DNA of 64,000 nucleotides from Acidobacteriota bacterium (GTDB taxonomy: Bacteria > Acidobacteriota > Thermoanaerobaculia > Multivoradales > JAGPDF01). The position numbers and the translations under genes are program-made. The notes beneath the pieces were generated by a model. That model saw only the letters and a list, made by a program, of their open reading frames with translations. It did not search any database and was not told the DNA's origin. Positions 36,720-61,697 of the stretch are shown in pieces. The stretch is taken from positions 105,265 to 169,264 of the forward strand of contig JACTMI010000032.1 in assembly GCA_014584695.1 (NCBI GenBank). The letters are read 5' to 3'. The number at the start of each line of letters is the position of its first letter. Within the stretch, counting starts at the first letter, position 1.

Positions 36720-38393
36720 ATGCCCTTCCTCGTCTTCCGCAACGGAGCCCGCAAAGGGGAGCGATTCTGGTTCGAGCGCGGCGTGCTGCTCGGCCGCGGT
36801 CCGCTGGCCGATCTCGAGCTCAAGGACCCGGCGGTGTCGCGCCGCCACGCGCTGGTCTCGTGGGCGGAGAAGCGCTGCTTCGTCTCCGACCTGCAGAGCG
36901 GCAACGGCACCTACGTCAACGGCCAGCGGGTGCGGGATCCGGTGCCGATCGACGAAGGCGACGAGATCCGGGTCGGCGCCAGCATCCTCGAGTTCCGGCA
37001 GAACGTCGAGCGGGTGCGCGACCTGTCGATGATCTCGCGCATCCTGCTCGAGGACTCGAAGCCCGATCTCGCCAAGGTCACGATCTCGCGCTCGGTCGTG
37101 ATCCCGATGTCGGGCAAGCGGACGACCACCGGCAGGACCTCGCTCGCCGCCGAGCTCAAGGCGCTCCAGCAGCGGCTGGAGTTCGTCAACGAGGTCGGCA
37201 AGGCGATGGCGCGCACGATCGACGAGACGGCGCTGCTCGCCGAGGTGCTGCGCCAGGTGCTCGACATCCTGCCGCAGGCGGACCGCGCCTTCGTGGTCCT
37301 CTACGAGGAGGACACCCAGACCTTCGTGCCGCGCGTGGCCCGCACCCGCTCCGGGACGGCGACCGAGATCCCGGCCAGCCGGACGCTGCTCGAGGAAGTG
37401 GTCCGCAAGCGCCATGCGCTGCTGTCGACCGACATCGGCAAGGAGGGCGCGTTCGAGGCGGCGATGTCGGTGCGGGCGCTCGATCTGCGCTCGGTCGCCT
37501 GCGTGCCGCTGATCGCCGAGGACCGGGTCTACGGCGTGCTCCAGGTCGACAATTCGGAGCGCAGCCGGAAGTTCTCCGAAGCGGACCTGAACATCCTGGT
37601 CGGCGTCGCCGGTCCGATCGCCCTGTCGCTCGCCAATGCCCGCCTCCACCGACAGCTGCTCGACCGCGAGCTGCTCGAGCACGATCTGGCGTTGGCGCGC
37701 CGGATCCAGCTGCGCTTCCTGCCCAAGGAGCTGCCGAAGCTGCCCGGATATCGTTTCGCGGTCGAATATTCGCCCGCGCTGGCGGTCGGCGGCGACCTCT
37801 ACGACCTCGTGCCGCTGCCCGACGGACGGCTCGCCATCGCGCTGGGGGACGTCTCCGGCAAGGGCGTGTCGGGCGCGCTCATGATGGCCCGGCTGACCAG
37901 CGAGTTGCGCGCGGCGGCGGTGCGGCGGGCCTCGGCCGCGGCGGTGCTCGAGGAGCTCAACGAGGTGGTCCACGCCGAGGGCGCCGAGGGGATGTTCGTG
38001 ACCCTCCTCTTCGGCATTCTCGACCCTTCGACCGGCCGGATCGAGCTCGCCAACGCCGGACACCTGCGGCCGGTCCTGCGCCACCCCGACGGCCGCTGCG
38101 GCGAGCTGTCGATCGCGACCGGCGCCGCGCTCGGCTTCAAGCGCCCGCTCGGGGCGGCCGCCTACGCCGTGCAGCTGGGCCCAGGCGACCTGCTGGCGAC
38201 CTTCTCGGATGGCTTGACCGAGGCCGCCAATGGCGCCGGCGAGCGCTTCGAGAGCGCGCGGGTCGTCGCGGCGATGCGGGGCGCGGCGGGCTGCGACGAG
38301 GCGCTCACCGGCATTCTTCAGTCGGTGCGCCAGTTCCTGGGCGACAGCGCGGTCGACGACGACCTGACCCTGCTCTGCGTCGGCCGCAGCTGA
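36720..38393 (+). CDS. FHA-GAF-PP2C (SpoIIE-type) serine phosphatase
   Basis: N-terminal FHA (VSRRHALVSW...GNGTYVNG), central GAF-like region, C-terminal PP2C/SpoIIE (AVGGDLYD...GDVSGKGVSGA). Confidence 0.8.
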   Translation: MPFLVFRNGARKGERFWFERGVLLGRGPLADLELKDPAVSRRHALVSWAEKRCFVSDLQSGNGTYVNGQRVRDPVPIDEGDEIRVGASILEFRQNVERVRDLSMISRILLEDSKPDLAKVTISRSVVIPMSGKRTTTGRTSLAAELKALQQRLEFVNEVGKAMARTIDETALLAEVLRQVLDILPQADRAFVVLYEEDTQTFVPRVARTRSGTATEIPASRTLLEEVVRKRHALLSTDIGKEGAFEAAMSVRALDLRSVACVPLIAEDRVYGVLQVDNSERSRKFSEADLNILVGVAGPIALSLANARLHRQLLDRELLEHDLALARRIQLRFLPKELPKLPGYRFAVEYSPALAVGGDLYDLVPLPDGRLAIALGDVSGKGVSGALMMARLTSELRAAAVRRASAAAVLEELNEVVHAEGAEGMFVTLLFGILDPSTGRIELANAGHLRPVLRHPDGRCGELSIATGAALGFKRPLGAAAYAVQLGPGDLLATFSDGLTEAANGAGERFESARVVAAMRGAAGCDEALTGILQSVRQFLGDSAVDDDLTLLCVGRS

Positions 38394-38409
38394 GCCGACT
38401 GGAGGGCGG

Positions 38410-38922
38410 TCAGCGCTTCGGCCGGCCGGGATCGGGGCGGAACTTGATCAGCGCCGCCGCCAGGGCGGCACGCTCCGAGGAGCTGCCGCCGCCGATCGGC
38501 GCGCGGATCTCCTTGCGCACGCCGTCGCGGCGCGACAGCAGGTCGTCCGCCAGATGGGAGACCTTGGCCGCCTTGACGTTGGTGGCCAGCCACTCGAGCG
38601 CCGGTTCGCGCGCCGGCAGGATCGGGAACAACGCCGCGAACCCCGAGATGTCGAAGACCTCCTTGACGCTCGGGTTGAGGGCGCAGAGGGCGAGCCGGCC
38701 GCCGACGCTGGCCAGGCGCTTGCCGGTCATCAGCAGGACGCGCAGGCCGGCGCTGGTGACGAAGTCGAGCCGTCCACAGTCGACCAGGAGCTCGGTCTTG
38801 CCCCCGGCCAACGCGGCTTCGAGCGCCTTCTCGAGCTGGGGCGCGGAGCGGGTGTCGAGCTGGCCCTGGAGCGCGGCGACCAGCACTCTGCCGGCCTCCT
38901 TGACCTGGACTTCGAAGGGCAT
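38410..38922 (-). CDS. STAS-domain protein (anti-sigma-factor antagonist-like) with C-terminal extension
   Basis: MPFEVQVKEAGRVLVAALQGQLDTRSAPQLE...SAGLRVLL matches the SpoIIAA/RsbV fold. Confidence 0.65.
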   Translation of the reverse strand: MPFEVQVKEAGRVLVAALQGQLDTRSAPQLEKALEAALAGGKTELLVDCGRLDFVTSAGLRVLLMTGKRLASVGGRLALCALNPSVKEVFDISGFAALFPILPAREPALEWLATNVKAAKVSHLADDLLSRRDGVRKEIRAPIGGGSSSERAALAAALIKFRPDPGRPKR

Positions 38923-38930
38923 CGGCGGAC

Positions 38931-39749
38931 CTACTCGGCGTGGAAGACGAAGTCGACCAGCCCGAAACGGAGCCGCGCGCCGCTGGTGAGCGGGCGCTCG
39001 ACCCCGGTCGCCAGCCGATCGCCCTCGACGAAGGTGCCGTTGGCGGTGCCGACCTCCTCGCGCAGCAGGAAGGCGCCGTCGCGGTAGACGATTCGCGCGT
39101 GCCGGCGCGACAAGGAGCGCTGGGGGTCGAGCGCCGTCAGGTCGATCTCGGGCGCCTGCTGGGTGACCGGGTCGAGGCGGCCGATGACCGCGTCGCGGTC
39201 GAACGGCAGCGGCAGCTCCGCGCCGGAGGGGACGTGCACGAGGCGCGGCCGGGCGGCGGTCGCGGCCGCGGGGGCGGCCGCCGCGGGCGGCGCCACCGGC
39301 TGCAGCGTCGCCAGCTCGTGCCGGGGCGCTCCCCCCAGCACCTCCTGCGCCACCCGGTTGGCGGCCAGCGCCTCCTCCTCGTAGCGGCGCAGTCGCTGCC
39401 CGAGCCCGCGCAGCATGCGCACGGCGACTTCCGGGTACTCGCGCAGCATCTGATCGAAGGTCGAGGCGTCGACCGGCAGCAGCCGCGCATCCTTGAGGAC
39501 GCGCGCCGACGCCGAGCGCGGGCGGCTCTCGAGCATCGCCATCTCGCCGAAGAAGTCGCCGGCCTCGAGCGCCATCAGCCGCTTCTCCTCGGGACCGAAC
39601 TGCTTGACCAGCTCGACCTCGCCCTCCTGGATGATGTACATCTCCTCGCCGCGCTCGCCTTCGCGGAAGACGAAGCTGCCGGCCGGGATCGAGATCAGCA
39701 GCTTCGACTGGGTGTCGTCGCCGCCGGCGCCTGGGCGTTCGTTGACCAT
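38931..39749 (-). CDS. Cyclic-nucleotide-binding domain plus FHA domain protein
   Basis: N-terminal cNMP-binding (FGEMAML) and C-terminal FHA (SRRHARIVY...GTANGTFVEG). Confidence 0.75.
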   Translation of the reverse strand: MVNERPGAGGDDTQSKLLISIPAGSFVFREGERGEEMYIIQEGEVELVKQFGPEEKRLMALEAGDFFGEMAMLESRPRSASARVLKDARLLPVDASTFDQMLREYPEVAVRMLRGLGQRLRRYEEEALAANRVAQEVLGGAPRHELATLQPVAPPAAAAPAAATAARPRLVHVPSGAELPLPFDRDAVIGRLDPVTQQAPEIDLTALDPQRSLSRRHARIVYRDGAFLLREEVGTANGTFVEGDRLATGVERPLTSGARLRFGLVDFVFHAE

Positions 39750-39865
39750 CGGGAGTGCGCATTGTAGATTCGACGCGGAAGCGAGTAAAGCCGTCCCGTC
39801 CGCCCTGGCCGATTCGCCGCCGGGCGGGGCGGAGTCCCGCCAGGGCAGGACCCGGACGCCCGATC

Positions 39866-41005
39866 ATGCGCGCACGCACCCTCGACGCCCCCTCCGAAGT
39901 GTCTCCCTCCGGCCCGCTCTGCCCGGTGGCGGAGCGGGTACGAGCCGAATCGGTCCGCCTCTGGGGGGCCGACCGGATGGTGACGATCGTGGGGCAGTCG
40001 CGCGCCATCGAGGAGCCGCTGGAGCGGCTGCTCAAGGTGGCGCGCTTTCACGAGCCGGTCCTGCTGCTGGGCGAGAGCGGTGTCGGCAAGGAGTCGTTCG
40101 CGGCGGCCTTGCACGCGCTCGGCCCCCGCTCCGACAAGCCGTTCGTGTCGGTCAACTGCCCGCAGTATCAGGAGGGCAATCTCACCGTCTCGGAGCTCTT
40201 CGGCCACAAGCGCGGCAGCTTCACCGGCGCCACCAACGATCGCCGGGGCTGCTTCGAGACCGCCGACGGGGGCTCGATCTTCCTCGACGAGGTCGCCGAC
40301 CTGCACATGTCCGCGCAGACCATGCTGCTGCGGGCGCTGGCTAACGGCGAGTTCCAGCCACTCGGCTCGGAGGTGACGCGCAAGGTGAGCGTCCGGGTCG
40401 TCTCGGCGACCAATCGAGACCTGAACAGCCTCGCCGCCGACGAGCGCTTCCGGCGCGACCTGCTGTTCCGGCTCCGCTACTTCCAGGTCGAGATTCCGCC
40501 GCTGCGGTCGCGCGGCGACGACTGGCTGCTGCTGGCGGAGTACTTCCTGGCGCGGCTGGCTCGCCGCTACGGCGTGCGCAAGTGCCTGTCGGGGGACTCG
40601 ATCCGGCTGCTGGAGCGCTACGACTGGCCGGGCAACGTGCGCGAGCTGATCTCGGTGGCGACCGCCGGCTACGCCCTCTCGGACGGCGACCGGATCGAAC
40701 CGCGCGATTTCGTCGATCACCTCGAGCAGGAGAACCGGCCGCGCGGTTCCGAGGTCGACGACCTCTACCGCCGGCTCTGCCGCGAGAGCGGCGATTTCTG
40801 GCAGCTGGTGCAGGAGCCCTTCCTCGACCGCGAGCTGTCGCGGCGCGAGGTGCGGACGCTGGTCGCCCGCGGCCTGCGCGAGTCGCGCGGCAGCTATCGC
40901 CGGCTGCTCGAGGTCTGGAAGATCCCCGCCGAGACCTACCAGAAGTTCATGGACTTCCTGCGCCACCATCGCCTCAAGCCGAGCAACCTGGAAGACGAGA
41001 ACTGA
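39866..41005 (+). CDS. Sigma-54-dependent transcriptional activator with no receiver or sensory domain (PspF-like)
   Basis: GESGVGKE Walker A, ELFGHKRGSFTGA (GAFTGA variant), RELISV. Only ~35 aa precede the AAA+ core. Confidence 0.8.
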   Translation: MRARTLDAPSEVSPSGPLCPVAERVRAESVRLWGADRMVTIVGQSRAIEEPLERLLKVARFHEPVLLLGESGVGKESFAAALHALGPRSDKPFVSVNCPQYQEGNLTVSELFGHKRGSFTGATNDRRGCFETADGGSIFLDEVADLHMSAQTMLLRALANGEFQPLGSEVTRKVSVRVVSATNRDLNSLAADERFRRDLLFRLRYFQVEIPPLRSRGDDWLLLAEYFLARLARRYGVRKCLSGDSIRLLERYDWPGNVRELISVATAGYALSDGDRIEPRDFVDHLEQENRPRGSEVDDLYRRLCRESGDFWQLVQEPFLDRELSRREVRTLVARGLRESRGSYRRLLEVWKIPAETYQKFMDFLRHHRLKPSNLEDEN

Positions 41006-41032: not shown

Positions 41033-42532
41033 GTGACCCGGACCCGCGCGGTGGTCTTCGACCTCTACGGGACCCTGCTCGAGATCGGGCGGCCCGTCTT
41101 CCAGGAGCGACTGCCCCGCATCGAGGGGATCTCCCGTCGCCAGTGGGTGGAGTTCCAGCGCGAGGACCTGCTGGTGCGCCCGTACGTCTCCCGCGAGGCG
41201 TTCGTCGACGCCATCGTCGCGCGGTTCGGCGGCGGCGCCGACGGCCACCGGGCGACGCTGCTCGACTTGCTCGAGGTCGAGCTCGCCTCCGTCCACGCCG
41301 TCGAGGGCGCAGGGTCCCTGCTCGCCTTCCTGCGCCGGCGCGGCCTCAGGCTCGGCCTGATCACCAACTCCGCCTCGCCCTACCGGGAGCCGCTCGAGCG
41401 GCTGGGGCTCGCGGAGCTGTTCGATGCGGTGCTCTTCTCGTGCGACGCCGGCGCGCGCAAGCCCGAGGAGCGGCTCTACCGCGACACGCTGGCGCGCCTC
41501 GGGGAGGCGCTGACTGCCGATCCGGCGGCGGCGCTGATGGTCGGCGACTCGCTCGGCAATGACGTCCGGGCGCCCGGACGCGCCGGCATGCGGGGGCTGC
41601 TGATCGGCGCCAGTGGCACCGCCCGCGCGGTGCCGCGGCTGGCCGACCTCGGCTGGCTGGATCTCGACACCCTCGAGCCCCTGCTGCCCGAGGGCGCCGA
41701 GATGGTGCTCGCCGGCGAGCGCCTGTCGGTCGAGCGGCGCGAGTCGCTCGACGACGCCGACCAGGGGCGCTACAACCTGGTCGCTCGCTTGCGCCTGCGC
41801 ACCGCGCGGGGGCTCGAGAAAGTGGCCTACGTCAAGCGCTTCCTGCTGCCGGAGTCGATCGAGGTCGAGCGCCTGATGGCGCGGCTGCTCGACGAGATCC
41901 ACGTCGGTTCCTGTCCCAACGTTCTGGTGGGTACCGGACTGGAGCCCCTGCTGGTGGTCGCCGAGGCGCCGGGGGTCAAGCTCGAGGCCGCGCGCGGCGA
42001 GCCGGCATACGCCCGCGAGGTGGGCCGCCACGCCGCCGCGGCCTACCTGTTCGCCAACGCCGACCTGCGGCCGCGCAATGCCTTTCTCGACGGCGAGGGG
42101 GCGGGTCTGCGGATGACCATGGTCGACTACGAGCACTGCCTGCTCAACCTGGCGATCGACCTCGAGGGCATCCCCGATCCGCTCGACCGCGACGCGCTCG
42201 AGGCGCTCGGCCGCGTCGAGCTCGAGCGCCGCGTGGCGCGCCGCGTACTCGCCGACGCCCACATGCGGCGCGCCTACCGCGCCTTCTTGGGCCCCCACGC
42301 CAAGGACGCCGGACTCGCCCGCGCCTTCCGCGCCGGCTGGATGGAGGTGCACGGCAAGGCGCGGGTCCTGCGTCAGGTCGTCGTCGACCTGCTCGAAGCC
42401 AGGCTGGCGGCCGATCCCCCGCTGGTCGTCGGCACCCATGCCTATCGCCGCGCATTCCTCCGTCTCGACCTCGAGGACGTCCTCTCCCGGCTGGACGAGG
42501 ACCCCGATCGCGCCTGCGACCGCTGCTTCTGA
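41033..42532 (+). CDS. HAD-superfamily hydrolase fused to a C-terminal domain of unknown function
   Basis: VVFDLYGTLL (DxD motif I) and MVGDSLGNDV (motif IV), then ~300 aa of unrecognised sequence. Confidence 0.6.
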   Translation: MTRTRAVVFDLYGTLLEIGRPVFQERLPRIEGISRRQWVEFQREDLLVRPYVSREAFVDAIVARFGGGADGHRATLLDLLEVELASVHAVEGAGSLLAFLRRRGLRLGLITNSASPYREPLERLGLAELFDAVLFSCDAGARKPEERLYRDTLARLGEALTADPAAALMVGDSLGNDVRAPGRAGMRGLLIGASGTARAVPRLADLGWLDLDTLEPLLPEGAEMVLAGERLSVERRESLDDADQGRYNLVARLRLRTARGLEKVAYVKRFLLPESIEVERLMARLLDEIHVGSCPNVLVGTGLEPLLVVAEAPGVKLEAARGEPAYAREVGRHAAAAYLFANADLRPRNAFLDGEGAGLRMTMVDYEHCLLNLAIDLEGIPDPLDRDALEALGRVELERRVARRVLADAHMRRAYRAFLGPHAKDAGLARAFRAGWMEVHGKARVLRQVVVDLLEARLAADPPLVVGTHAYRRAFLRLDLEDVLSRLDEDPDRACDRCF

Positions 42533-42565
42533 ACCGCGATACTCCTGTCGGTCCTGTCCGCGATG

Positions 42566-42626
42566 GAGCCACGGCTCCAGAAGTTCGGGTCCCGGCTCCG
42601 TCCGGCTCCGTGCAGGATCCGGCTCG
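42566..42626. promoter_or_regulatory. Candidate enhancer: palindrome GGAGCC-N2-GGCTCC plus direct repeats CCGGCTCCG, TCCGGCTCCG and ATCCGGCTCG, 50-110 bp upstream of a sigma-54 promoter
   Basis: Read directly. The same TCCGGCTCCGG motif recurs, inverted, upstream of the second precursor gene (44341-44353). Confidence 0.3.
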
Positions 42627-42674: not shown

Positions 42675-42689
42675 TGGCACCGGGGTTGC
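42675..42689 (+). promoter_or_regulatory. Sigma-54 (-24/-12) promoter TGGCAC-cgggg-TTGC
   Basis: Perfect consensus spacing, 83 nt upstream of the precursor A start codon. Confidence 0.65.
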
Positions 42690-42771: not shown

Positions 42772-43079
42772 ATGGAGATGTCGCGCGGTGAGATGCAGGA
42801 CCTGCTGAACAAGTTCGCGGCCCAGAACCCGAAGTACCGCGAGGCCCTGCTGTCGGACCCGAAGTCGGTGGTCCAGAAGCAGTTCGCCCTCAGCCTGGAG
42901 GGGGTCACGGTCAAGGCGGTCGAGGAGAGCCCGAACACCTTGTACGTCATCGTTCCGCGCGCGGCGGCGGCCGGTGAGCTCGACGACTCCGACCTCGAGA
43001 AGGTCGCGGGCGGCGGCGACATCAACGTCAAGCTGGGCGGCGAGGTCAGCTGCTCGCAGGGCAGATCAACCTCGGCTGA
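42772..43079 (+). CDS. RiPP precursor peptide A with NHLP-type leader and GG site; 3' end uncertain (-1 frameshift against a conserved TGA at 43077-43079)
   Basis: GAGGAG RBS. Leader ...LLSDPKSVVQKQFALSLEGVTVKAVEESPNTLYVIVPRAAAAGELDDSDLEKVAGGG, then DINVKLGGEVSCSQG. Frame 0 has no stop until 43596, running antisense through the aminopeptidase gene. The end is set at the conserved TGA. Confidence 0.55.
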
Positions 43080-43181
43080 GCCGGGCGCAGACATCAGGGG
43101 CCGCGGCGGGCGACCGAAAGGTCCCCGCCGCGGCTCTTTCCCTTTCGAGCGGCTGGCAGGTCGGCGCAGGTTGCGCCGGGC

Positions 43182-44309
43182 TCAGCCTTCGCCGGCGAGC
43201 AGGCGCTCCGGATTGAGCCCCTCGAGATCGGGCACCACGAAGCGGCCGTCCTTGCGGATCAGGACGTCATCGAACCAGATCTCGCCGCCGCCGTCGGCCG
43301 CTTCCATCCGCAGCACCAGGTCCCAGTGGACCTGCGAACGGTTGCCGTTGTCCGCGGCGGCGTACGCCTGGCCCGGCGTGAAGTGGATCGAGCCGGCGAT
43401 CTTCTCGTCGAACAGGATGTCCTTCATCGGTGCGGTGATGTGGGGGTTGAAGCCGAGCGCGAACTCGCCGACATGGCGCGCGCCGTCGTCGGTGTCGAGC
43501 AGGCGGTCGAGCGCCTCGCCGGCGCTGCTCGAGGCCTCGACGATGCGGCCGCCGCGAAAGACGAAGCGGACGTTCTCGTGCGTCACCCCGCGGTAGAGCG
43601 ACGGCGTGTTGTAACGGATGGTCCCCTCCACGCTATCGCGCACCGGCGCGGTGTAGACCTCGCCGTCCGGCAGGTTGCGCCGACCGTCGCAGGCCACCGC
43701 GCCGATACCCCTGACGCTGAAGGAGAGGTCGGTGCCCGGAGCGGTGATGCGAACGCGGTCGGCCGCCTCGAGGCGCGCCTTGAGCGGCGCCATGGCGCGC
43801 GACATCCGGGCGTAGTCGAGCGTGCAGACCCGGAAGTAGAGCTCTTCGAAGGCCGCGGTCGAGGTGCCGGCCAGCTGGGCCATCGAGGGACCCGGCCAGC
43901 GGGTCACCACCCAGCGCGTGCGCGGGACGCGAAGGTCCAGGTGGACGCGCTTCCAGAGCAGCGCCTCGAACAGCGCCATCCGCTCGCTCGGCACGTCGGC
44001 GAGCTCCGAGACGTTGTCGCCGCCGCGCAGGCCGATGTAGGCGTCCACCTGGCGCATCACGGCTTCCTCGCCGTCGGCGATCAGCGTCCACTGCTCGGTG
44101 GTCCCGGCCCGCAGCAGCTCGCGGGTCACCGGCGCGCTCTTCAGCAGCACCGCCGGCAGCGCCCCGGCGGCCGCCGCCGCGCGCACCAGGGTGGTCACGA
44201 ACGAGGTCGGCACGTCGATCGCCTCGATCAGCAGCTTGTCGCCCGGAACGAGGGCGCAGGAGTAGCGGACGAGCGTTTCGGCGAGCTTCTGGTGGCGGAG
44301 GTCGGTCAT
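43182..44309 (-). CDS. M29-family aminopeptidase (AmpS/PepS-like)
   Basis: 376 aa from the ATG at 44309; M29-like organisation (HVGEFALG...). It is divergent from and sandwiched between the two precursor genes. Confidence 0.65.
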   Translation of the reverse strand: MTDLRHQKLAETLVRYSCALVPGDKLLIEAIDVPTSFVTTLVRAAAAAGALPAVLLKSAPVTRELLRAGTTEQWTLIADGEEAVMRQVDAYIGLRGGDNVSELADVPSERMALFEALLWKRVHLDLRVPRTRWVVTRWPGPSMAQLAGTSTAAFEELYFRVCTLDYARMSRAMAPLKARLEAADRVRITAPGTDLSFSVRGIGAVACDGRRNLPDGEVYTAPVRDSVEGTIRYNTPSLYRGVTHENVRFVFRGGRIVEASSSAGEALDRLLDTDDGARHVGEFALGFNPHITAPMKDILFDEKIAGSIHFTPGQAYAAADNGNRSQVHWDLVLRMEAADGGGEIWFDDVLIRKDGRFVVPDLEGLNPERLLAGEG

Positions 44310-44522
44310 CGGAGGAGGTCCCGGTGGGGTCGTGCGGCGCCCGGAGCCGGAGCGCGCCGCGGGTTCTCGAAGCAACTCTAGCCGCGATTCGAGCGGCTGG
44401 CTCTTCCGGCATGGAGCGCTCGCTCCATCGATTCGAGCGAGGGCTCCGCTCAGCGCGGCGCCGGCAGGACCGCGGAGCGATGCGCGCGTTGAAAGCATTG
44501 AACTTACGCATTCGAGGCCGAT

Positions 44523-44537
44523 TGGCATCGGGGTTGC
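44523..44537 (+). promoter_or_regulatory. Sigma-54 (-24/-12) promoter TGGCAT-cgggg-TTGC
   Basis: Same architecture and spacing as the 42675 promoter, 82 nt upstream of the precursor B start. Confidence 0.6.
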
Positions 44538-44618: not shown

Positions 44619-44928
44619 GTGGAGATGTCACGCGGTGAGATGCAGGACCTGCTGAACAAGTTCGCGTCCCAGAACCCGCAGTATCGCGATGCGCTGATCA
44701 AGGACCCGAAGTCGGTGGTGGAGAAGCAGTTCAACATCAGCCTCTCCGGCGTCACCGTCAAGGCCGTGACCGAGGCCCCCGACACGCTGTACGTGATCGT
44801 TCCGCGTGCTGCGGCGGCCGGTGAGCTCGACGACTCCGACCTCGAGAAGGTCGCGGGCGGCGGCGACATCAACGTCAAGCTGGGCGGCGAGGTCAGCTGC
44901 TCGCAGGGCCCAGATCAACCTCGGCTGA
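44619..44928 (+). CDS. RiPP precursor peptide B (paralog of A, GTG/ATG start); 3' end uncertain (+1 frameshift against the same conserved TGA at 44926-44928)
   Basis: Leader about 85% identical to A and an identical core start DINVKLGGEVSCSQG. Frame 0 would read 345 nt into lanM, which is implausible. Confidence 0.55.
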
Positions 44929-45040
44929 GCCGAGGCGGATCCACGAAGCCCGATTCCGGGGGCCCGTGGACGGGCTGCAAGGCCCGCCACGCGGCCCCCG
45001 GTTGTTTCGTGGGCCCCTGCTCGGAGAACCCAAGCTGGCC

Positions 45041-48000
45041 ATGTCGACGATCGCCACTGCGTGCCTGCGTGCCGAGACGCTGTTCGAGCGGCTCGCGCGG
45101 CTGGCCCGCGCTTTCGACGCTCCTCCGGCCTTGGAGGATGCCGCGGTGGCCGCGGCGCTCGAGCCGTGGCGGCGGGCGGTCGCGCGCGGCGACGGCGAGG
45201 CCTTCGCGCGCCGGCTCGCCTGGGACGGCATCGACCCGCGCGTGGCGGCGCTCGCGTTCGTGGAACCGGTAGGAGCGCCCGACGGCCCATGGTGCGTGAA
45301 CATGGAGCGCTGGCTCCATGCCGTGGCGACAAGGGGTCTCGCGAGCTCCGGCAGCGAGCTCGCCGCCGGGCTGCCGTTCGGAGAGTGGGTCGCCAGCTGG
45401 GTCGCAGAAGCGGCCTCCCGCGCCCGGCAGAAGCTGCCGGCGCTCGACGACCTGCTGACGCCGGCGGCGTGGCTGCAGTGGCAGCGGGCCCTCGGCGGGC
45501 GGCTCGCCTGGATCGCCGCGCTGCCGCTCTACGAGCGCTTCGACCTCGAGCGATCGGCGCGGGGCGAAGCGGGTGCGCTAGCCCGATTTCTCGCGGCGCT
45601 CGGCGCCAGCCCGACGGCGTCCGGCCTCGAGCTGCCGGGACTGGTCCGGCAGCTCGCCGGCCGGGCCGAGGACTGGATCGATGCCGGTGTGGAGTGGATC
45701 GGTCGCTTGGCCGCCGATCGCGCCGGCTTCGCACTCGCCTTCGAGGGGGACGCCGATCCCGGTCGGGTCGTGGCGGTGGAGGCCGGGCTCTCCGATCCTC
45801 ACGCCCGTGGCCGCCGTGTCCTGGCGCTCACCTTCGAGTCGGGGCTCGAGGTGATCTACAAGCCCCGGCCGGTCGACCTGGAGTCGGCCTGGTGGCAGCT
45901 CGCGAGCGAGCTCGCCGAGGCCGGTTTCGAGGCCGCCCCGCTGGCGGCGCGGACGCTCGCCCGGCCGGGCTACGGCTGGATGGAAAGGGTGGCCGCCGGC
46001 GGGGTCGACAGCGCGAGCGAGGCCGAGTCCTGGTTCCGCCGCGCGGGCGCGCTGGTCGCGCTGGCATGGGTGCTCGGCGGCCGCGACCTCCACGCCGAGA
46101 ACCTGATCGCCGACCGGCGCGGACCGGTCCTGGTGGACGCGGAGATGCTGCTCGCTCCGGAGCCGGGCGCGCTGCTGCGCAGCGGCCCCGACTCCGTGCT
46201 GGCGACCGGCCTGGTGGCCGATCCCGCGGCCACGGCGGGGCCCGGAGCCTGGGGCTACGCCGGCCTCGACCTGCCGGAGCCGGGCGAGCTGCCCGAAGCC
46301 GACCGGCACTGGGAGAACCTCGGCACCGACCGGCTTCGGCTGGCCTGGCGACGTTTCCCCAGGGCCCTCAAGACCAACGTTCTGAGGTGGCGCGGGCGGC
46401 CCCAGCGTCCCGAGGCCTGGCGGGAGGCCGTGTTGGAGGGCTTCGACCTCGGCATGGCGGCGATTGGCGAGCAGCGGGAGCGGATCGAGCGCTGGTTGGC
46501 GGCGCGCGGCGACACGCCGACGCGCGTTCTGTTCCGTCCGAGCGCCCAGTACGCGACCACGGTCGCCCTGTCGGTCCGTCCCCGCTACGCCAACGACGGG
46601 CTGGCCGGCAGCCTGCTGCGCGAAGCGCTCCTGCAGCCGCTCGTCGGCCTCGCCGAGCGGCCGGCGCTCTGGCCCCTGATCGCCGACGAGCGGGCCGCGC
46701 TCGAAGCGCTCGACCTGCCGGTCTTCCACCTGCCGGCCGGTGCGACGGCGCTCACCAACTCGGCGGGAGAAAGGATCGAGGGCCTGTTCGAGCAGAGCGG
46801 GATCGCGGCCGCTCGCGCGCGGCTCGCCGAGCTCGACGCGGAGAGAATCGAGCGCGAACGCCGCCACCTCGCGGCCGCGCTCGAGCCGCGCCGGCTCGGG
46901 CGCGCGGAGGAGGAGTCCCGGCTCGCGGCCGCGGCGGCCGAGATCGCCGGCGCGCTGGCGATGTCGAAGGCCTTCGCCGCCGTGCCCGCGCCCGGCGCGT
47001 CGCTGCGCGAGCTCGCCCTCTACGGCGGCGCCGCCGGGCGCGCGCTGTTCGCGGCGGGGGCTTGGCGGGCCACCGGCGGAGCGGCCTGGGCATCGATTGC
47101 CGGAGAGATCGCGTCCGGCCTCGTGCGCGCTCTCGCGGCGGTGCCGGCGGAGGCGGAGGGACAGCCATCACGGCCTGGGGGCACCGACGGCTGGGGCTCG
47201 ATTCTCTGGACCTTGGTCACCCTCGCGGAACTGCTCGAGCAGCCGGAGCTGCTCGCGGGCGCGGCGGCGGCCGGCGAGCGTCTCGAAGCCACGCCACGGC
47301 GGCCGGATCTCTGGGGATTCGACCTCGCCGCGGGCGAGGCGGGGGCGTTGCTCGGCTGGCTGGCCCTGGCGCAGGCGAGCGGGGAGGCCGCGGCGCTCGA
47401 GCGCGCGCGCGACAGTGGGCAGCGGCTGCTGTCGAGCCAGCTCCGGTCGGGTCCGGATGCCGGAGGCTGGCCGGCGCCCGGGGGCTCGCCGCCGCTCGCG
47501 GGCTTCGCGCACGGCGCCTCGGGCATCGCCCGTGCCCTCGATGCGCTGGCGGCCGCGACCGGCGAGGGGGAGTATCGCGACGCGGCCGGCGCGGCGCTGC
47601 GCTTCGAGAGCTCGTTGTTCGATCGCCAGCGCGGGGACTGGCCAGCGCGGATCGCCGGCGGCGGTCGCCGGTTCCTGTGCAGCTGGTGCCACGGAGCGCC
47701 GGGGGTGGCGATCGCCCGCGCGCTCCGGCTGGCGGCAGGGGGCGAGGATCGGGCGGCGGCTACGGAGCTCGCGACGGCGCTCGCCACGCTCGCTGGGGCG
47801 CCGCTGCCCGAAGTCGACCACCTCTGCTGCGGCACGGCGGGACGCCTGGCGGCGCAGACGGTCGCCGGGCGGTGGGGCGGCGGCGAGGAAGCGCTGGCGG
47901 CGGGACGGCGGCTGGCGCGCCGGGCCCTGGCGCGCGCTGAAGGCAGCGGCGGCTGGCGGATTCCGGCCGAGCCGCCGGCGGAGCGTCCGGATCTCGGGCT

Positions 48001-48121
48001 GTTCCGAGGCTACCCGGGCCTCGCCTGGAGCCTGATCTCGCTCACCGACGCGGGCGGACCGCTGCCGCTGGTGGCGGCGCTCGAGCTGCCGGCGGAGCGC
48101 CGCCGGAGGAGCCAGCAATGA
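45041..48121 (+). CDS. lanM: Class II lanthipeptide synthetase LanM (dehydratase plus LanC-like cyclase)
   Basis: Kinase-like dehydratase motifs (DLHAENLIA...VLVDAEM). C-terminal LanC zinc-ligand motifs GFAHGASG, SWCHGAPG and CCGTAG. An alternative GTG start at 44966 is possible. Confidence 0.85.
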   Translation: MSTIATACLRAETLFERLARLARAFDAPPALEDAAVAAALEPWRRAVARGDGEAFARRLAWDGIDPRVAALAFVEPVGAPDGPWCVNMERWLHAVATRGLASSGSELAAGLPFGEWVASWVAEAASRARQKLPALDDLLTPAAWLQWQRALGGRLAWIAALPLYERFDLERSARGEAGALARFLAALGASPTASGLELPGLVRQLAGRAEDWIDAGVEWIGRLAADRAGFALAFEGDADPGRVVAVEAGLSDPHARGRRVLALTFESGLEVIYKPRPVDLESAWWQLASELAEAGFEAAPLAARTLARPGYGWMERVAAGGVDSASEAESWFRRAGALVALAWVLGGRDLHAENLIADRRGPVLVDAEMLLAPEPGALLRSGPDSVLATGLVADPAATAGPGAWGYAGLDLPEPGELPEADRHWENLGTDRLRLAWRRFPRALKTNVLRWRGRPQRPEAWREAVLEGFDLGMAAIGEQRERIERWLAARGDTPTRVLFRPSAQYATTVALSVRPRYANDGLAGSLLREALLQPLVGLAERPALWPLIADERAALEALDLPVFHLPAGATALTNSAGERIEGLFEQSGIAAARARLAELDAERIERERRHLAAALEPRRLGRAEEESRLAAAAAEIAGALAMSKAFAAVPAPGASLRELALYGGAAGRALFAAGAWRATGGAAWASIAGEIASGLVRALAAVPAEAEGQPSRPGGTDGWGSILWTLVTLAELLEQPELLAGAAAAGERLEATPRRPDLWGFDLAAGEAGALLGWLALAQASGEAAALERARDSGQRLLSSQLRSGPDAGGWPAPGGSPPLAGFAHGASGIARALDALAAATGEGEYRDAAGAALRFESSLFDRQRGDWPARIAGGGRRFLCSWCHGAPGVAIARALRLAAGGEDRAAATELATALATLAGAPLPEVDHLCCGTAGRLAAQTVAGRWGGGEEALAAGRRLARRALARAEGSGGWRIPAEPPAERPDLGLFRGYPGLAWSLISLTDAGGPLPLVAALELPAERRRRSQQ

Positions 48122-49092
48122 CGACGCCGCAATTCGAGGTCCGCCGGCTCGCATCGCCGGTCGATCCCGCCTTCAGCGCCATGACCTTTCCGCTCTATCG
48201 CCGCCTGCTTTCGCTCGAGCCGACGGTGCGCCACCCCGAGCAGGGCGACCCGCGGCGGATCCAGCCGGTCGCCATCGGCGCCTTCGAGGCGGAGCGGCCG
48301 GTCGGCCTGATCGTGGCCGAGCAGCCCCTCGGGGACAGCGAGCCGGCGGAGCTGCTCTCCCTGTTCGTGGCCGAGGGCGAGCGCGGCCGGGGGGTCGGAG
48401 GCGCCCTGGTCGCCGCGGCCGAGCAGGCCCTCGCGGCCGCGGGGGTCGCGGAGGTGCGCGCGGTGTGGACGGCCGGCAAGCCGGCGATCGAGGCGCTGGA
48501 GCGGATTCTCGCCCGCCACGGCTGGACGCCGCCGGCGGCCCGCACGGTTTCGGCCCGCTTCCGGCCCGAGAAGATGCTCACCCTGCCGCTGTTCTCTCCT
48601 CGTCACCTGGCGTCCCTGGATCCGGGATTCGAGATCTTCCCCTGGGCGGAGCTGCCGGCCGAGGAGCTCGCCGCCCTGCGCGCCTCGAACGAGGCCCGGC
48701 ACTGGATTTCCGACGGTCTCGAGCCCTGGAGCTACCGCGGCGGCGCCGGCTACGACCCGGCGACCAGCGTCGGCGCGCGCCACCAGGGGCGGCTGGTCGG
48801 CTGGGTGCTGACCGAGCGAATCGACGACCGCCTGCTGCGCTGGACCGTGAGCTTCCTGGACAAGCGTCTGTCCCGGCGCGGCCGCATCGTGCCGCTCTAC
48901 AAGTCGTCGCTCGAGCGGGCGGTGGCGGCGGGCTACGAGCTCTGCCTGTTCGTGACCCCCGTCCGGTTCCCCAACATGGTGCGCTTCATCCACAAGTGGA
49001 TCGCCCGCCGGGCGGAGTTCATCGGCGAGACTCGCTCCGCCGGGCGCCGGCTCACCCCGTCGGGCGCCGGCGCGCCCCGCCTTGAATCCTGA
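48118..49092 (+). CDS. GNAT-family N-acetyltransferase, translationally coupled to lanM (ATGA)
   Basis: GERGRGVGGALV acetyl-CoA-binding motif. The start overlaps the lanM stop. Confidence 0.65.
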   Translation: MTTPQFEVRRLASPVDPAFSAMTFPLYRRLLSLEPTVRHPEQGDPRRIQPVAIGAFEAERPVGLIVAEQPLGDSEPAELLSLFVAEGERGRGVGGALVAAAEQALAAAGVAEVRAVWTAGKPAIEALERILARHGWTPPAARTVSARFRPEKMLTLPLFSPRHLASLDPGFEIFPWAELPAEELAALRASNEARHWISDGLEPWSYRGGAGYDPATSVGARHQGRLVGWVLTERIDDRLLRWTVSFLDKRLSRRGRIVPLYKSSLERAVAAGYELCLFVTPVRFPNMVRFIHKWIARRAEFIGETRSAGRRLTPSGAGAPRLES

Positions 49093-54525: not shown

Positions 54526-56736
54526 GTGAGCAACCCCGCCGCCCCGCCCGCCGCCGAGAGCGAGGCCCAGCCCAAGCCGAGCGGTCCGCCCAGCCGGCGG
54601 GTCAAGGTCCCGACCGTCATCCAGATGGAGGGCGTCGAGTGCGGCGCCGCTTCGCTGGCGATGATCCTCGCCTACTTCGGCCGCATCGCGCCGCTGGAGG
54701 AGCTGCGGGTCGAGTGCGGCGTTTCGCGCGACGGCTCCAAGGCTTCCAACCTCCTGAAGGCGGCGCGCAAGTACGGCCTGGAGTCGAAGGGCTTTAAGTA
54801 CGAGATCGAGCAGCTCTTCCCGCTCAAGTTCCCCTGCATCCTGTTCTGGAACGCCAACCACTTCCTGGTGCTCGAGGGCTTCCGGGGTGGCAAGGTCTAT
54901 CTGAACGACCCGGCGCAGGGGCCGCGCGTCATCACCATGGAGGAGTTCGACGCCGGCTTTTCGGGCGTCGTGCTGACTTTCGAGAAGGGGGCGGACTTCC
55001 AGCCCGGCGGCGACAAGCCGAGCATGTACCACGCGCTCCGGCGGCGCCTGGTCGGTTCCGAGGTGGCGCTGCTGTTCGTCCTGCTCTGCGGCCTGTTCCT
55101 GGTCGTGCCCGGACTGGTCATCCCGACGTTCTCGCGCATCTTCGTCGACGAGTATCTCGGCGCCGGCCGTGATTCGATCATCCGCCCGCTGCTGCTGGGC
55201 ATGGGGATCACCGCGCTCCTGAACATGGCGCTGACCGGGCTGCAGCAGCACTCCCTGCTGCGGCTGGAGACCCGTCTGGCGCTCAAGACCTCGGCGCAGT
55301 TCTTCACCCACGTGCTGCGCCTGCCGATCAACTACTTCGCGCAGCGCTTCGCCGGCGAGATCGGCTCGCGCGTGGCGATCAACGACAAGGTGGCGACGAT
55401 GGTCGGCGGCAAGCTCGCCACCACCGTCATCGACTGCATCCTGGTCGTCTTCTACGGCGCGTTGATGTTCCTGTACGACGGCATCCTGACCTCGGTCGTG
55501 ATCGCCCTGGCGTTGGCCAACATCGTGGCGATGAAGCTGGTCCAACGGGTCCGCACCGACGCTTCCCGGAGGCTGCAGGCGGACAAGGGCAAGCTGGTCG
55601 GCACCGCGATGTACGGCTTGAGGATGATCGAGACGCTCAAGGCGACCGGCTCCGAGCCCGAGTTCTTCGCCCGCTGGTCCGGCTACCAGGCCAAGTCGCT
55701 GCGCGCGCAGCAGGAGCTGCAACTCCTCTCCGAGATGATCAATGTGGTGCCGCAGCTGGTGACGACGCTGATCTCGGCGGTGGTCCTGCTGCTGGGCGGC
55801 CTGCGGGTGATGGACGGCGCGCTCACGGTCGGCATGCTGGTGGCCTACCAGACCCTGTCGGGGAACTTCACCAAGCCGCTCTCGAACCTGGTCAACTTCG
55901 GCGGTTCCTTGCAGGAGCTCGAAGCGGACATGAACCGCCTCGACGACGTGCTTCGCTACCCGCAGGACAAGACCTACGAGCGGGAGGACGTCGGCCGCGA
56001 GGACCGCCGGCTCAAGCTGCAGGGCAAGGTCGAGCTGCGCAACGTGACCTTCGGCTACAGCCCGCTCGAGAAGCCGCTGATCGAGGACTTCAACCTGGTC
56101 ATCCAGCCCGGCCAGCGGGTGGCGCTGGTCGGCGCCTCGGGCAGCGGCAAGTCGACGGTGGCCAAGGTCGTCTCCGGCCTCTACGAACCCTGGCGTGGCG
56201 AGGTGCTGTTCGACGACGTGGCCAGGACTCAGCTGCCGCGCCGCCTGCTCACCAACTCCCTGGGCATGGTCGACCAGGACATCTTCATGTTCGACGGCAC
56301 CATCCAGGAGAACGTGACGATGTGGGACGGCACCATCCCGCTCACCGCGGTGTCGACGGCGGCGCGCGACGCCGCCATCGACGAGGTGATCGAGACCCGC
56401 GAGGGGGCGTATGGCGCCAACGTGACCGAAGGCGGCTCGAACTTCAGCGGCGGGCAGCGCCAGCGGCTCGAGATCGCCCGCGCGCTGGTCGGCGGGCCGA
56501 CGGTGCTGATCCTCGACGAGGCGACGAGCGCGCTCGATCCGGCGACCGAGGTGGTGATCGACGACTCGACGCGGCGACGCGGCTGCACCACGATCATCAT
56601 CGCGCACCGCCTGTCGACGATCCGCGACTCCGACGAGATCATCGTCCTCGAGCGCGGCAAGATCGTCCAGCGCGGCACCCACGAAGAGATGAAGGACCAG
56701 GATGGCCCCTATGCCCGGCTCATCGGCGCCCACTAG
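54526..56736 (+). CDS. ABC exporter with N-terminal C39 bacteriocin-processing peptidase domain
   Basis: C39 catalytic Cys in VPTVIQMEGVECGAASLAMILAYFG, 6-TM domain, Walker A GASGSGKST, signature FSGGQRQRL. Confidence 0.85.
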   Translation: MSNPAAPPAAESEAQPKPSGPPSRRVKVPTVIQMEGVECGAASLAMILAYFGRIAPLEELRVECGVSRDGSKASNLLKAARKYGLESKGFKYEIEQLFPLKFPCILFWNANHFLVLEGFRGGKVYLNDPAQGPRVITMEEFDAGFSGVVLTFEKGADFQPGGDKPSMYHALRRRLVGSEVALLFVLLCGLFLVVPGLVIPTFSRIFVDEYLGAGRDSIIRPLLLGMGITALLNMALTGLQQHSLLRLETRLALKTSAQFFTHVLRLPINYFAQRFAGEIGSRVAINDKVATMVGGKLATTVIDCILVVFYGALMFLYDGILTSVVIALALANIVAMKLVQRVRTDASRRLQADKGKLVGTAMYGLRMIETLKATGSEPEFFARWSGYQAKSLRAQQELQLLSEMINVVPQLVTTLISAVVLLLGGLRVMDGALTVGMLVAYQTLSGNFTKPLSNLVNFGGSLQELEADMNRLDDVLRYPQDKTYEREDVGREDRRLKLQGKVELRNVTFGYSPLEKPLIEDFNLVIQPGQRVALVGASGSGKSTVAKVVSGLYEPWRGEVLFDDVARTQLPRRLLTNSLGMVDQDIFMFDGTIQENVTMWDGTIPLTAVSTAARDAAIDEVIETREGAYGANVTEGGSNFSGGQRQRLEIARALVGGPTVLILDEATSALDPATEVVIDDSTRRRGCTTIIIAHRLSTIRDSDEIIVLERGKIVQRGTHEEMKDQDGPYARLIGAH

Positions 56737-59700: not shown

Positions 59701-60088
59701 GGCGGCGGCGCAGAAGGCCTCGATCGCGGAGGACATCAAGGCGATGCCGATGGGCATGCACACCGTCGTGTCCGAAGGCGGCGGAGCGTTCTCGGGTGGC
59801 CAGAAGCAGCGTCTGATGATCGCCCGCGCGCTGGTCAACAACCCGAAGATCATCTTCCTCGACGAAGCCACCAGCGCGCTCGACAACCGGGCGCAGGCGA
59901 TCGTGACCGAGAGCATGAATCGGCTGCAGGCGACGCGCATCGTCATCGCTCACCGGCTGTCGACGATCGAGGACGCGGACGTCATCTGCTACCTCGATGC
60001 CGGGCAGATCGTCGAGCAGGGCACCTACGCCGAGTTGATGGCCCTGGACGGCAAGTTCGCGGCCCTGGCGAAACGGCAGCTGGCATGA
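56702..60088 (+). CDS. ABC exporter with N-terminal FHA and cNMP-binding-like domains instead of a peptidase
   Basis: FHA (VLGRADDCDVVIAVPSVSRRHAQIERVGEDFVVRDAGSANGLVV). Beta-barrel-like FVLDDPEVAWIVESGKLEIF...VEPGQALFG. TMD, Walker A GGSGCGKST, signature FSGGQKQRL. Confidence 0.8.
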   Translation: MAPMPGSSAPTSARGALKLRVVASSLAELIGREIAVDRAPMVLGRADDCDVVIAVPSVSRRHAQIERVGEDFVVRDAGSANGLVVAGQRVMEARLEPGVSFALGDTHFEVFAEMPPVPQVPDVPAAALPFAVDRTAAIANLSEIIAQIERPQPLEELGERIVTAANKPFVLDDPEVAWIVESGKLEIFTVSIEKGQPVGARDHFLTVEPGQALFGFDTERYGMGSGFLVVGKAGSVLRRFDLARLLDLASVPAHGQRIGKLLDTWIEGLSRRLTHDLPRVPTADLILERGASMPWQAGQKASPGHVVLWVELPAERLLFDGMASLGRDLEGVLFPLGPTCWLELLSSEHELAVTPRGAGESAADPRLWAGLDVFHRVLCECEFVNKKLAFVDEFQRLQRKAEQVEQAQESAYAAIGSVLGGTGVWMRPSSLGVDSGPILKACAVVGDALGIQVRPHPDARDEQSFEDALGGIAAASRFRTRRVTLLDDWWNHDQGPFLGQRAETKTPVAIVPTSPRSYMLVDPISGERVPIDEEVARGLEPFAWTFYRSFPPGALKALDLVKFGARGLKAEFRTIAIMGAAVGMLGTLTPMISGKVFDIAIPQAERGLLWQFTLGLALSAFCSAAFKITQNISLMRVQGKMDYSIQSAVWDRLIDLPMDFFRKYNSGDLADRAAGVDQIRSIVSGAGVAAVLGSLSSLFNAAQMVTYSFQLALTAMALTLVYVGVSWLVNYLQLRHQRKEFALRGKISGLVLQLIGGVAKLRVAGAEGHAFKMWATRFAEQRRISFKIGGIQNVHQIFTSGYPVLSNMAIFFVMFTLRQGALERGEQFDMTTGDFLAFSAAFGIFTSAMQGLGDASLSMLRIVPVFERLKPILTTEPEVDPSKSYPGQLKGEIELSHIWFRYSEDSPWIVRDLSLKIKPGQMVAFVGGSGCGKSTLLKIMLGFEKPQKGSAYFDGQDLATLDLRMVRQQLGVVLQDSRLLPADIFRNIAGATSRTVDDAWAAAQKASIAEDIKAMPMGMHTVVSEGGGAFSGGQKQRLMIARALVNNPKIIFLDEATSALDNRAQAIVTESMNRLQATRIVIAHRLSTIEDADVICYLDAGQIVEQGTYAELMALDGKFAALAKRQLA

Positions 60089-61272: not shown

Positions 61273-61697
61273 CCGAGCTGTTTCGGGGATCCCTCGATCG
61301 TCCCACCCTCGCCGGGCTCGGCCGTTTGCTGGACCGGCTGGCGGAGGCGATGGCGCGGGCCGGTGTCACCACCCGCAGCGCGCAGTCGATCTCGATCGCG
61401 GCCGACGAGCTGGCGAGCAACGTGCTGAATCACCGCGAAGGGCGTGACAAGCCTCACCTCGACCTGGTGCTGCGGCGCCGGGAGGACGGCGCGATCGAGC
61501 TCGAGCTGATCGACGACGGGCCGGAGTTCGATCCGTTCGCGGTCGCCGCGCCGGACGTCACTCTCGGCCTCGAGGAGCGCCCGATCGGCGGGCTCGGCAT
61601 CCACCTCGCCCGCCGCCTCGCTTCCGGCGCGAGCTACCGGCGCGGCGACGACCGCAACCGCGTCGAGCTCCGCTTCGACCCGCCGGCCGCCGGCTGA
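61269..61697 (+). CDS. RsbW/SpoIIAB-like anti-sigma serine kinase (HATPase_c)
   Basis: N-box ADELASNVLNH, G1 DDGPEFD, G2 GGLGIHL, 142 aa. Confidence 0.65.
   Translation: MTELFRGSLDRPTLAGLGRLLDRLAEAMARAGVTTRSAQSISIAADELASNVLNHREGRDKPHLDLVLRRREDGAIELELIDDGPEFDPFAVAAPDVTLGLEERPIGGLGIHLARRLASGASYRRGDDRNRVELRFDPPAAG

Follow-up and report, generated by a model that had tools for sequence, protein, structure and literature searches.

A sigma-54 activator and candidate phosphorylation-signalling genes linked to a class II lanthipeptide cluster in an Acidobacteriota genome

Four regulatory genes lie together at positions 36720–41005 of a stretch of 64,000 nucleotides, here called the window, from contig JACTMI010000032.1 of an Acidobacteriota bacterium (GenBank assembly GCA_014584695.1), next to a gene cluster for a peptide that is made on the ribosome and modified after translation (RiPP), of the lanthipeptide type. 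A preliminary description, made from the letters of the window, had read them as a signalling island dedicated to the RiPP locus and immediately upstream of it. The G+C content of the window is approximately 72%, at which raw lists of open reading frames are rich in spurious frames, and genes were therefore defined by domain searches and conservation. All four genes are present where the preliminary description placed them and have the domains it named, as judged by Pfam and by the same four genes in an independent gene call on another assembly. The adjacency to the RiPP locus holds as well, except that a conserved gene for a HAD-fusion protein (41033–42532) intervenes before the first precursor gene at 42772. 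The first 33 kb of the window consist of housekeeping genes and include no protein kinase.

The first of the four genes (36720–38393, plus strand) encodes a 557-aa phosphatase of the architecture FHA-GAF-PP2C, the last domain being of the SpoIIE type (Pfam FHA, E = 2.8e-19; GAF_2, 2.9e-16; SpoIIE, 4.2e-48). Direct reading of its sequence shows the PP2C acidic motifs GGDLYD, GDVSGKG, FSDGLTE, and DDDLTLL. Homologues number more than 650 at E ≤ 1e-30, and the architecture is common to nearly all of the best 120 listed. The second gene (38410–38922, minus strand) encodes a 170-aa protein resembling STAS anti-sigma antagonists (Pfam STAS, 1e-17; TIGR00377, 1.4e-22), whose start, MPFEVQ at 38922, was fixed by matching orthologues and is borne out by an independent gene call of 170 aa. 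The third gene (38931–39749, minus strand) encodes a 272-aa protein with a cyclic nucleotide monophosphate (cNMP)-binding domain and an FHA domain (Pfam cNMP_binding, PF00027, 4.3e-21; FHA, 2.1e-10). It weakly matches TIGR03896, a model for a bacteriocin-transport-associated cNMP protein, and homologues are present in 15 related loci; the phosphate-binding cassette motif FGEMAML..RSA can be read in its sequence, and ligand binding is predicted. The STAS protein continues for about 60 aa past its domain (38410–38600), a tail that is found in the sampled orthologues except that of locus L013 (locus numbers are ours), that varies in length, and that might be a docking or phosphorylation segment.

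The fourth gene (39977–41005, plus strand, in a reading frame open from 39755) encodes a sigma-54 enhancer-binding protein composed of an AAA+ domain and a C-terminal tail resembling a helix-turn-helix (Pfam Sigma54_activat, PF00158, 4.1e-57; AAA_lid_14, 3e-17). In the full reading frame the AAA+ domain begins at residue 78 and all orthologue alignments start at M75, which corresponds to coordinate 39977; because the orthologues align only from this residue, the activator probably lacks an N-terminal regulatory (sensor) domain and has a PspF-like layout. The motifs GESGVGKE, ELFGHxxGSFTGA (in which GSFTGA is a variant of GAFTGA), and IFLDE are invariant across 16 orthologues. The C-terminal sequence GSYRxLL..YQKFMDFLRHH is conserved among the orthologues and has a Fis-like pattern when judged by eye; no Pfam match to HTH_8 was obtained in this tail even at E ≤ 10. 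An alignment with the PspF model PRK11608 runs to the end and covers nearly the full length of the model, at 198 bits against a cut-off of 529, and the second NCBIfam PspF model, TIGR02974, gives 231 against 443.55 bits. Between the cNMP-FHA and activator genes, back-to-back promoters resembling those of sigma-70 are located at 39742–39789, with TTGACC-17-TAGATT on the plus strand and TTTACT-17-TACAAT on the minus strand. By consensus match, three such sites occur between 35.8 and 45.2 kb against 0.2 expected, two of them being this divergent pair, which suggests common control of the cNMP-FHA and activator operons.

Downstream of these genes is a complete class II lanthipeptide cluster comprising LanM (DUF4135 and LANC_like domains), NHLP precursors, a GNAT protein, two OEP genes, and an exporter. 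The genes are arranged in the order HAD-fusion, precursor A1, an M29 peptidase (minus strand), precursor A2, LanM, GNAT, two OEP, three NHLP export proteins, DUF7005, an RsbW-like protein, and an FHA protein (minus strand). The models TIGR03793, TIGR03794, TIGR03796, and TIGR03797, which represent the precursor and the three NHLP export proteins, all score above their NCBIfam cut-offs. Precursor A1 (42772–43089, plus strand) was identified with TIGR03793 (52.2 bits, cut-off 50.9), and A2 (44621–44927, plus strand) by alignment with A1 and with relatives. The second ATP-binding cassette (ABC) subunit of the exporter (56702–60088, plus strand; TIGR03797, 893 bits, cut-off 709) is headed by an FHA domain (9.6e-15). 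About 315 residues (120–436; 57060–58010) that have no Pfam match separate this FHA domain from the transporter core; part of this region looks like a cyclic-nucleotide-binding barrel by eye, and a BLASTP comparison with the cNMP-FHA protein aligned the FHA parts only.

Sigma-54 control of precursor transcription is supported here by a conserved promoter together with an upstream palindrome. Precursor A1 is preceded by a perfect sigma-54 promoter match, TGGCAC-N5-TTGC (42675–42689, plus strand), which starts 97 nt 5′ of the ATG, and precursor A2 by TGGCAT-N5-TTGC (44523–44537, plus strand), which has one mismatch. A palindrome, the candidate activator-binding site, is located 112 bp upstream of the −24 element of A1 (ATGGAGCCACGGCTCCAG, 42563–42580, plus strand) and again 112 bp upstream of the A2 promoter (ATGGAGCGCTCGCTCCAT, 44411–44428, plus strand); its consensus is ATGGAGC-N4-GCTCCAT. 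These two promoters are the sole intergenic sigma-54-like sites within 33–64 kb. The bare count of matches is not significant (three against 2.27 expected at no more than one mismatch), and the case therefore rests on position, the paired palindrome, and conservation. The composite of palindrome and sigma-54 site occurs twice in the window against 0.00 expected in shuffled sequence.

To place the activator, 80 loci containing relatives of it were fetched, of which 18 hold full-length orthologues (56–81% identity) and 62, matching the AAA+ domain only, served as controls. According to the records' own labels, the orthologues belong mostly to Acidobacteriota (Thermoanaerobaculia and Vicinamibacterales), with two Chthoniobacter-type Verrucomicrobiota and one metagenome-assembled genome (MAG) labelled Pseudomonadota. 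In every locus with enough flanking sequence the orthologue adjoins NHLP precursors, LanM and/or the NHLP exporter. The first precursor is preceded by a sigma-54 site at 83–129 nt in 10 of 11 orthologous loci (background expectation, 0.011 per 60 bp), and in 13 further loci the palindrome, frequently in the form of a tandem pair, is found 91–116 bp upstream of a sigma-54 site; in L006, L090, and L092 the pair of elements was also seen under a relaxed search. The exact composite is present in 10 of the 92 fetched loci, every one of them an orthologous cluster, and the control loci contain three palindrome matches in 974 kb. The composite recurs ahead of the first precursor in most of the orthologous clusters, in Acidobacteriota, Verrucomicrobiota, and the Pseudomonadota-labelled MAG alike, and the conserved C-terminal tail of the activator fits a binding site shared across these clusters. 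With its AAA+ motifs and a predicted −24/−12 target promoter equipped with an upstream site, the protein has two of the features expected of a sigma-54 enhancer-binding protein, and sigma-54/activator control of precursor transcription is well supported computationally and constitutes the best-supported part of the finding. A third perfect palindrome, ATGGAGCGCTGGCTCCAT (45302–45319, plus strand), is located approximately 260 bp inside the 5′ part of lanM, with a near-identical copy at the same place in L081 (position 16731); it could reflect a coding constraint or a downstream enhancer.

The FHA-GAF-PP2C phosphatase was followed through 11 homologues on long contigs (39–84% identity). In 10 of the 11 the phosphatase gene adjoins the cluster or its NHLP exporter, across at least four gene orders. 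Homologues at 84, 73 (L001), 59, and 56% identity share the order Lon-TauE-PP2C-STAS-cNMP-FHA-activator-HAD-precursor-LanM-GNAT. The block is kept despite a different left flank in L084 (49%) and without the HAD and GNAT genes in L090 (41%), and in L092 (39%) the cluster is inverted, so that the activator and the phosphatase are divergent neighbours. In L086 (45%), L085 (41%), and L091 (39%), the phosphatase, DUF7005, and FHA genes are found directly beside the two ABC export genes, together with STAS or RsbW-like genes in some. The phosphatase homologues are accompanied by STAS, cNMP-FHA, the pair of DUF7005 and RsbW-like kinase, and the FHA-bearing ABC subunit; stand-alone FHA proteins adjoin STAS or DUF7005 in L085, L086, L091, and L092. 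That the association persists through at least four gene orders speaks for a functional link rather than for accidental synteny. The preliminary description had named conservation of the island in genomes lacking the RiPP locus as the observation that would count against its dedication; the sampled loci do not show this, homologues down to 39% identity staying with the cluster or exporter. The dedication of the island to the cluster is therefore supported, as far as gene neighbourhoods can indicate.

The remaining signalling genes are found at the far end of the cluster, beyond the exporter. The preliminary description had set the STAS protein against an RsbW-like kinase, and the gene for this serine kinase or anti-sigma-type protein was confirmed at 61269–61697 (plus strand; HATPase_c_2, 1.3e-17). 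The proposed pairing gains weight from relatives in which the two genes are adjacent (L013 and L085) and from the phosphorylatable serine of STAS, which is invariant in nine orthologues; this residue aligns with S56 of RsbV and S58 of SpoIIAA in Bacillus reference sequences. STAS, RsbW, and PP2C genes are clustered in L085, and in L013, a Chthoniobacter MAG, a separate contiguous STAS-RsbW-PP2C trio is located 8 kb from the cluster. With a PP2C/SpoIIE phosphatase, a STAS protein carrying a phosphorylatable serine, and an RsbW-type kinase, the set of parts for a partner switch appears complete, and the parts look competent. The RsbW-like gene is followed by a gene for a protein with a C-terminal FHA domain (61698–62795, minus strand; FHA, 2.8e-20). 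This domain and the N-terminal FHA domain of the ABC subunit, both reported earlier, are genuine. The earlier total of five FHA domains was one too many, as a six-frame hidden Markov model (HMM) search of all 64 kb returned exactly four, in the phosphatase, the cNMP protein, the second ABC subunit, and the C-terminal-FHA protein, and rules out a fifth. All four retain the phospho-threonine-binding residues GR..SRRHA..NG. We infer the dedication of these signalling genes to the cluster from protein families and gene neighbourhood.

Directly upstream of the RsbW-like gene, and overlapping it by 4 nt, is a gene for a DUF7005 protein (60085–61272, plus strand; PF22541, 8e-108). DUF7005 always follows the second ABC gene, or an activator gene that itself follows the second ABC gene, and approximately one in four of the best DUF7005 homologues is a fusion with HATPase_c_2. 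The protein has an invariant HExxH motif and an invariant E274, and its fold is predicted with confidence (predicted local distance difference test, pLDDT, 93.5). A Foldseek search against the PDB gave no match with E < 1. DUF7005 may be zincin-like.

The HAD-fusion gene that separates the island from precursor A1 (41033–42532, plus strand) encodes a HAD phosphatase (Pfam HAD, 1.2e-20) joined to a conserved C-terminal domain of 285 aa with kinase-like motifs (41666–42532), and in several relatives it follows the activator gene. The C-terminal domain has the invariant residues K268, E279, NADxRPRN (342–349), and DxE (365–367), which resemble a kinase active site, and in the AF2 model (pLDDT 95.6) the predicted order of strands and helices would fit a two-lobed kinase. 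Database comparisons did not back its identity as a kinase: phmmer against the PDB, a PDB profile search, and Pfam at E ≤ 10 gave no support, and Foldseek matches of the protein are confined to the HAD half. In an hhalign comparison with PknB the region from hinge to catalytic loop is in register, but the probability is below 1%. As a lead only, the domain may represent an unrecognised kinase family and the missing phospho-donor of the system.

Taken together, these observations make it reasonably probable that the four genes form part of a regulatory system belonging to the class II (NHLP-leader, LanM, GNAT) cluster, with a transcription arm and a signal arm. In the transcription arm, the sensor-less activator would bind ATGGAGC-N4-GCTCCAT approximately 110 bp upstream of the sigma-54 promoter at each precursor and open these promoters using ATP. 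In the signal arm, the FHA-GAF-PP2C phosphatase, the STAS protein, and the distant RsbW-like kinase, which is apparently translationally coupled to DUF7005 in the window and fused to it elsewhere, would form a partner switch, in which the phosphatase would dephosphorylate the phosphoserine of STAS and free STAS would capture the kinase. The FHA domains would tie the phosphatase, the cNMP protein, the C-terminal-FHA protein, and the ABC subunit to phospho-threonine marks, and further input, from small ligands, would come through the GAF and cNMP domains. Our best guess is that the signal arm acts at the exporter and feeds back on precursor supply, rather than acting on a sigma factor. We lean toward the exporter because DUF7005 follows the ABC gene and the ABC subunit carries an FHA domain. 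A specific form of this output, which we offer tentatively and would not call likely, is a checkpoint on peptide export and supply, in which the kinase acts through DUF7005, FHA domains dock the phosphatase, the cNMP sensor, and the ABC exporter on phospho-threonine marks made by the HAD-fused kinase-like domain, and the state of the resulting complex sets the activity of the activator at the precursor promoters.

Several observations weigh against this reading. None of the genes of the window annotated with Pfam showed a sigma factor domain, which leaves the RsbW-like protein with no classical target, and no Hanks-type kinase was found in the window by Pfam on all plausible genes or by tblastn with the kinase of L011. 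Such a kinase is present in L006, L007, L008, L011, L015, L016, L017, and L084, and in distant versions of the cluster the cNMP-FHA gene is beside it. The scan of 33–64 kb found no intergenic sigma-54 promoter ahead of the signalling genes, which are therefore not co-regulated with the precursors through the same element. Six loci with an activator orthologue (L003, L007, L008, L014, L082, and L084) have no recognisable palindrome. The phosphatase homologue of L087 (39% identity, on a Planctomycetes contig with a short flank) has no cluster nearby, and in the closest clade the order from Lon-TauE-PP2C to LanM is merely inherited, so that those loci by themselves are no proof of function. The system is also described from sequence.

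A further difficulty is that both precursors lose the conserved frame at the same site in the core, A1 by −1 and A2 by +1 relative to the ending QINLG followed by a stop, with the core of A1 out of frame and no in-frame stop nearby; in the window, neither has an intact reading frame running through the core to a stop codon. The frame is lost within 43040–43090 in A1, which reads CAGGG-C-AGATC, and within 44885–44930 in A2, which reads CAGGG-CCC-AGATC, and a run of two C residues would restore ..SCSQGQINLG and the stop. The final 110 nt of A1 and A2 are otherwise identical, and both are missing 18 nt, encoding ALQTMI, that are found in relatives. In the relatives L001 and L081 the precursor ends in ..GGKVECSQGALQTMIQINLG followed by a stop, and L083 differs at a few core positions. 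Either the structural genes may have decayed or the assembly may have a consensus error where the sequence is repeated. An assembly error is possible because, in the same organism, a contig built from short reads is interrupted within A1. Metagenome contigs scanned for exact patterns of the precursor 3′ end, as a guide to the length of the C-run, gave no matches.

We infer that the exporter is the meeting point of the switch and the FHA proteins, and a reading in which the partner switch instead acts on the activator is nearly as likely. There, the pair of RsbW-like protein and DUF7005 would silence the activator, as PspA does PspF, dephosphorylated STAS would release it, and the output would be transcription only. 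An activator with no regulatory domain needs control in trans, DUF7005 is directly beside the activator in L012 and L013, the phosphatase and activator genes lie next to or diverge from each other in the clade of the window as well as in L092, and the activator shares a divergent promoter region with the cNMP-FHA/STAS operon. Set against this, L085, L086, and L091 have the phosphatase, DUF7005, and accompanying signalling genes at the exporter and lack a complete gene for a sensor-less activator within 10 kb, and in the window the DUF7005 and RsbW-like genes come after the ABC genes, at a distance of 19 kb from the activator. On balance we regard control of the activator by the switch as possible, if rather unlikely.

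It is considerably less plausible that the activator is the only cluster-specific regulator and that the PP2C, STAS, and FHA genes make up a unit for general stress or envelope signalling, nearby by inherited order. The closest relatives have indeed inherited the Lon-TauE-PP2C order, the FHA-GAF-PP2C architecture occurs widely, with one homologue on its own, and the PP2C, STAS, and FHA genes have no sigma-54 promoter. However, the genes stay associated where the left flank differs (L084), where the cluster is inverted (L092), and where they have moved next to the exporter (L085, L086, and L091), the exporter itself bears an FHA domain, and the Chthoniobacter MAG has a second copy of the trio 8 kb from its cluster. 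Least probable of all is that the FHA and HAD-fusion proteins act on the peptide itself, with LanM or the kinase-like domain writing phospho-threonine or phosphoserine, FHA domains reading it for hand-over to the exporter, and HAD or PP2C erasing it, for although LanM enzymes phosphorylate Ser/Thr ahead of elimination, an ABC subunit is headed by an FHA domain, and the HAD fusion accompanies the cluster and shows invariant residues like those of kinases, the kinase-like assignment has no database match, STAS and RsbW are the classic parts of a protein–protein switch, and the HAD fusion is missing from many versions of the cluster.

The favoured reading, a two-armed system belonging to the cluster, can be compared with several characterized systems. 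Like PspF of the phage-shock operon, the activator of the window consists of an AAA+ sigma-54 domain and a short, putatively DNA-binding tail with no N-terminal sensor, and such activators are controlled in trans. Unlike PspF, it scores far below the PspF cut-offs, its tail is not recognised as HTH_8, its predicted targets are peptide precursor genes, and no PspA was noticed in the locus. The PP2C phosphatase, the STAS protein with its phosphorylatable serine, and the HATPase_c_2 kinase correspond to RsbU-RsbV-RsbW and to SpoIIE-SpoIIAA-SpoIIAB, whereas in the window there is no sigma factor among the annotated genes, the kinase is coupled (elsewhere fused) to DUF7005, the phosphatase has FHA and GAF inputs, and the parts bracket a biosynthetic cluster. 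In the PpkA-PppA-Fha1 system of Pseudomonas aeruginosa type VI secretion and the BtrU/V/W system of Bordetella type III secretion, phosphorylation parts gate a secretion machine post-translationally. The window likewise has FHA and PP2C proteins and a predicted partner switch in the place of a Ser/Thr kinase beside a secretion machine; here the machine is an ABC peptide exporter with its own FHA subunit, and there is no Hanks kinase. In nisin-type LanR/LanK systems, a histidine kinase and a response regulator act on sigma-70 promoters. As in the nisin and subtilin systems, a cluster-encoded regulator would drive the precursor promoter, whereas the window would use sigma-54 and a sensor-less AAA+ activator, with separate Ser/Thr-phosphorylation parts.

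The three transport proteins that score above the cut-offs of TIGR03794, TIGR03796, and TIGR03797, and the NHLP-leader precursors, agree with the NHLP export cassette of Haft et al. 2010 (PMC2887384). Searching that paper by term gave no mention of sigma-54, FHA, or cyclic nucleotides, and a large Ser/Thr kinase beside Burkholderia clusters is all that it notes of this kind. In literature searches, no paper was found that connects NHLP lanthipeptides with sigma-54, with FHA domains, or with partner switching. The wiring is real and conserved and is built from known families of parts; the combination is apparently undescribed.

Of the lanthipeptide clusters of uncultured soil phyla, the majority are silent or have yet to be tested, and how they are regulated is seldom known. 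The activator, its candidate binding site, and the sigma-54 promoter, shared within a single family of NHLP/LanM clusters from Acidobacteriota and Verrucomicrobiota, provide a portable handle, and expression of the activator in a sigma-54-containing host could switch on such clusters. The partner switch, the four FHA readers, and the cNMP and GAF sensors around an ABC exporter may constitute phosphorylation-gated peptide secretion with no sigma-factor target, which, if true, would widen the known scope of partner switching.

Other features of the cluster concern the peptide and its maturation. The GNAT acyltransferase gene directly follows LanM (48118–49092), and the precursor core holds a conserved Lys (GDINVKLGG), which together suggest an acylated lanthipeptide of the nostolysamide or selidamide kind. 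The combination of NHLP, LanM, and GNAT matches acylated lanthipeptides such as nostolysamides (PMC13060382). The M29 aminopeptidase gene between A1 and A2 (43182–44309, minus strand), found at the same position in L001, encodes an enzyme that may trim residues remaining after leader cleavage. In Vicinamibacterales-type versions of the cluster, LanM is followed immediately by a row of an unknown protein of about 465 aa (no Pfam match), a cNMP-FHA protein, and a Ser/Thr kinase of the Hanks type with about 1000 aa; the row occupies 15342–20575 in L011 and is also found in L007, L008, L015, and L017.

GC-rich structures follow both precursors, at 43096–43137 after A1 (plus strand; −44.4 kcal/mol, z −4.4) and at 44956–45001 between A2 and lanM (−57 kcal/mol, z −6.5). 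A terminator scan called no intrinsic terminators, these structures included, and they are therefore named hairpins only. The hairpin between A2 and lanM is placed like the read-through attenuators of other lantibiotic operons.

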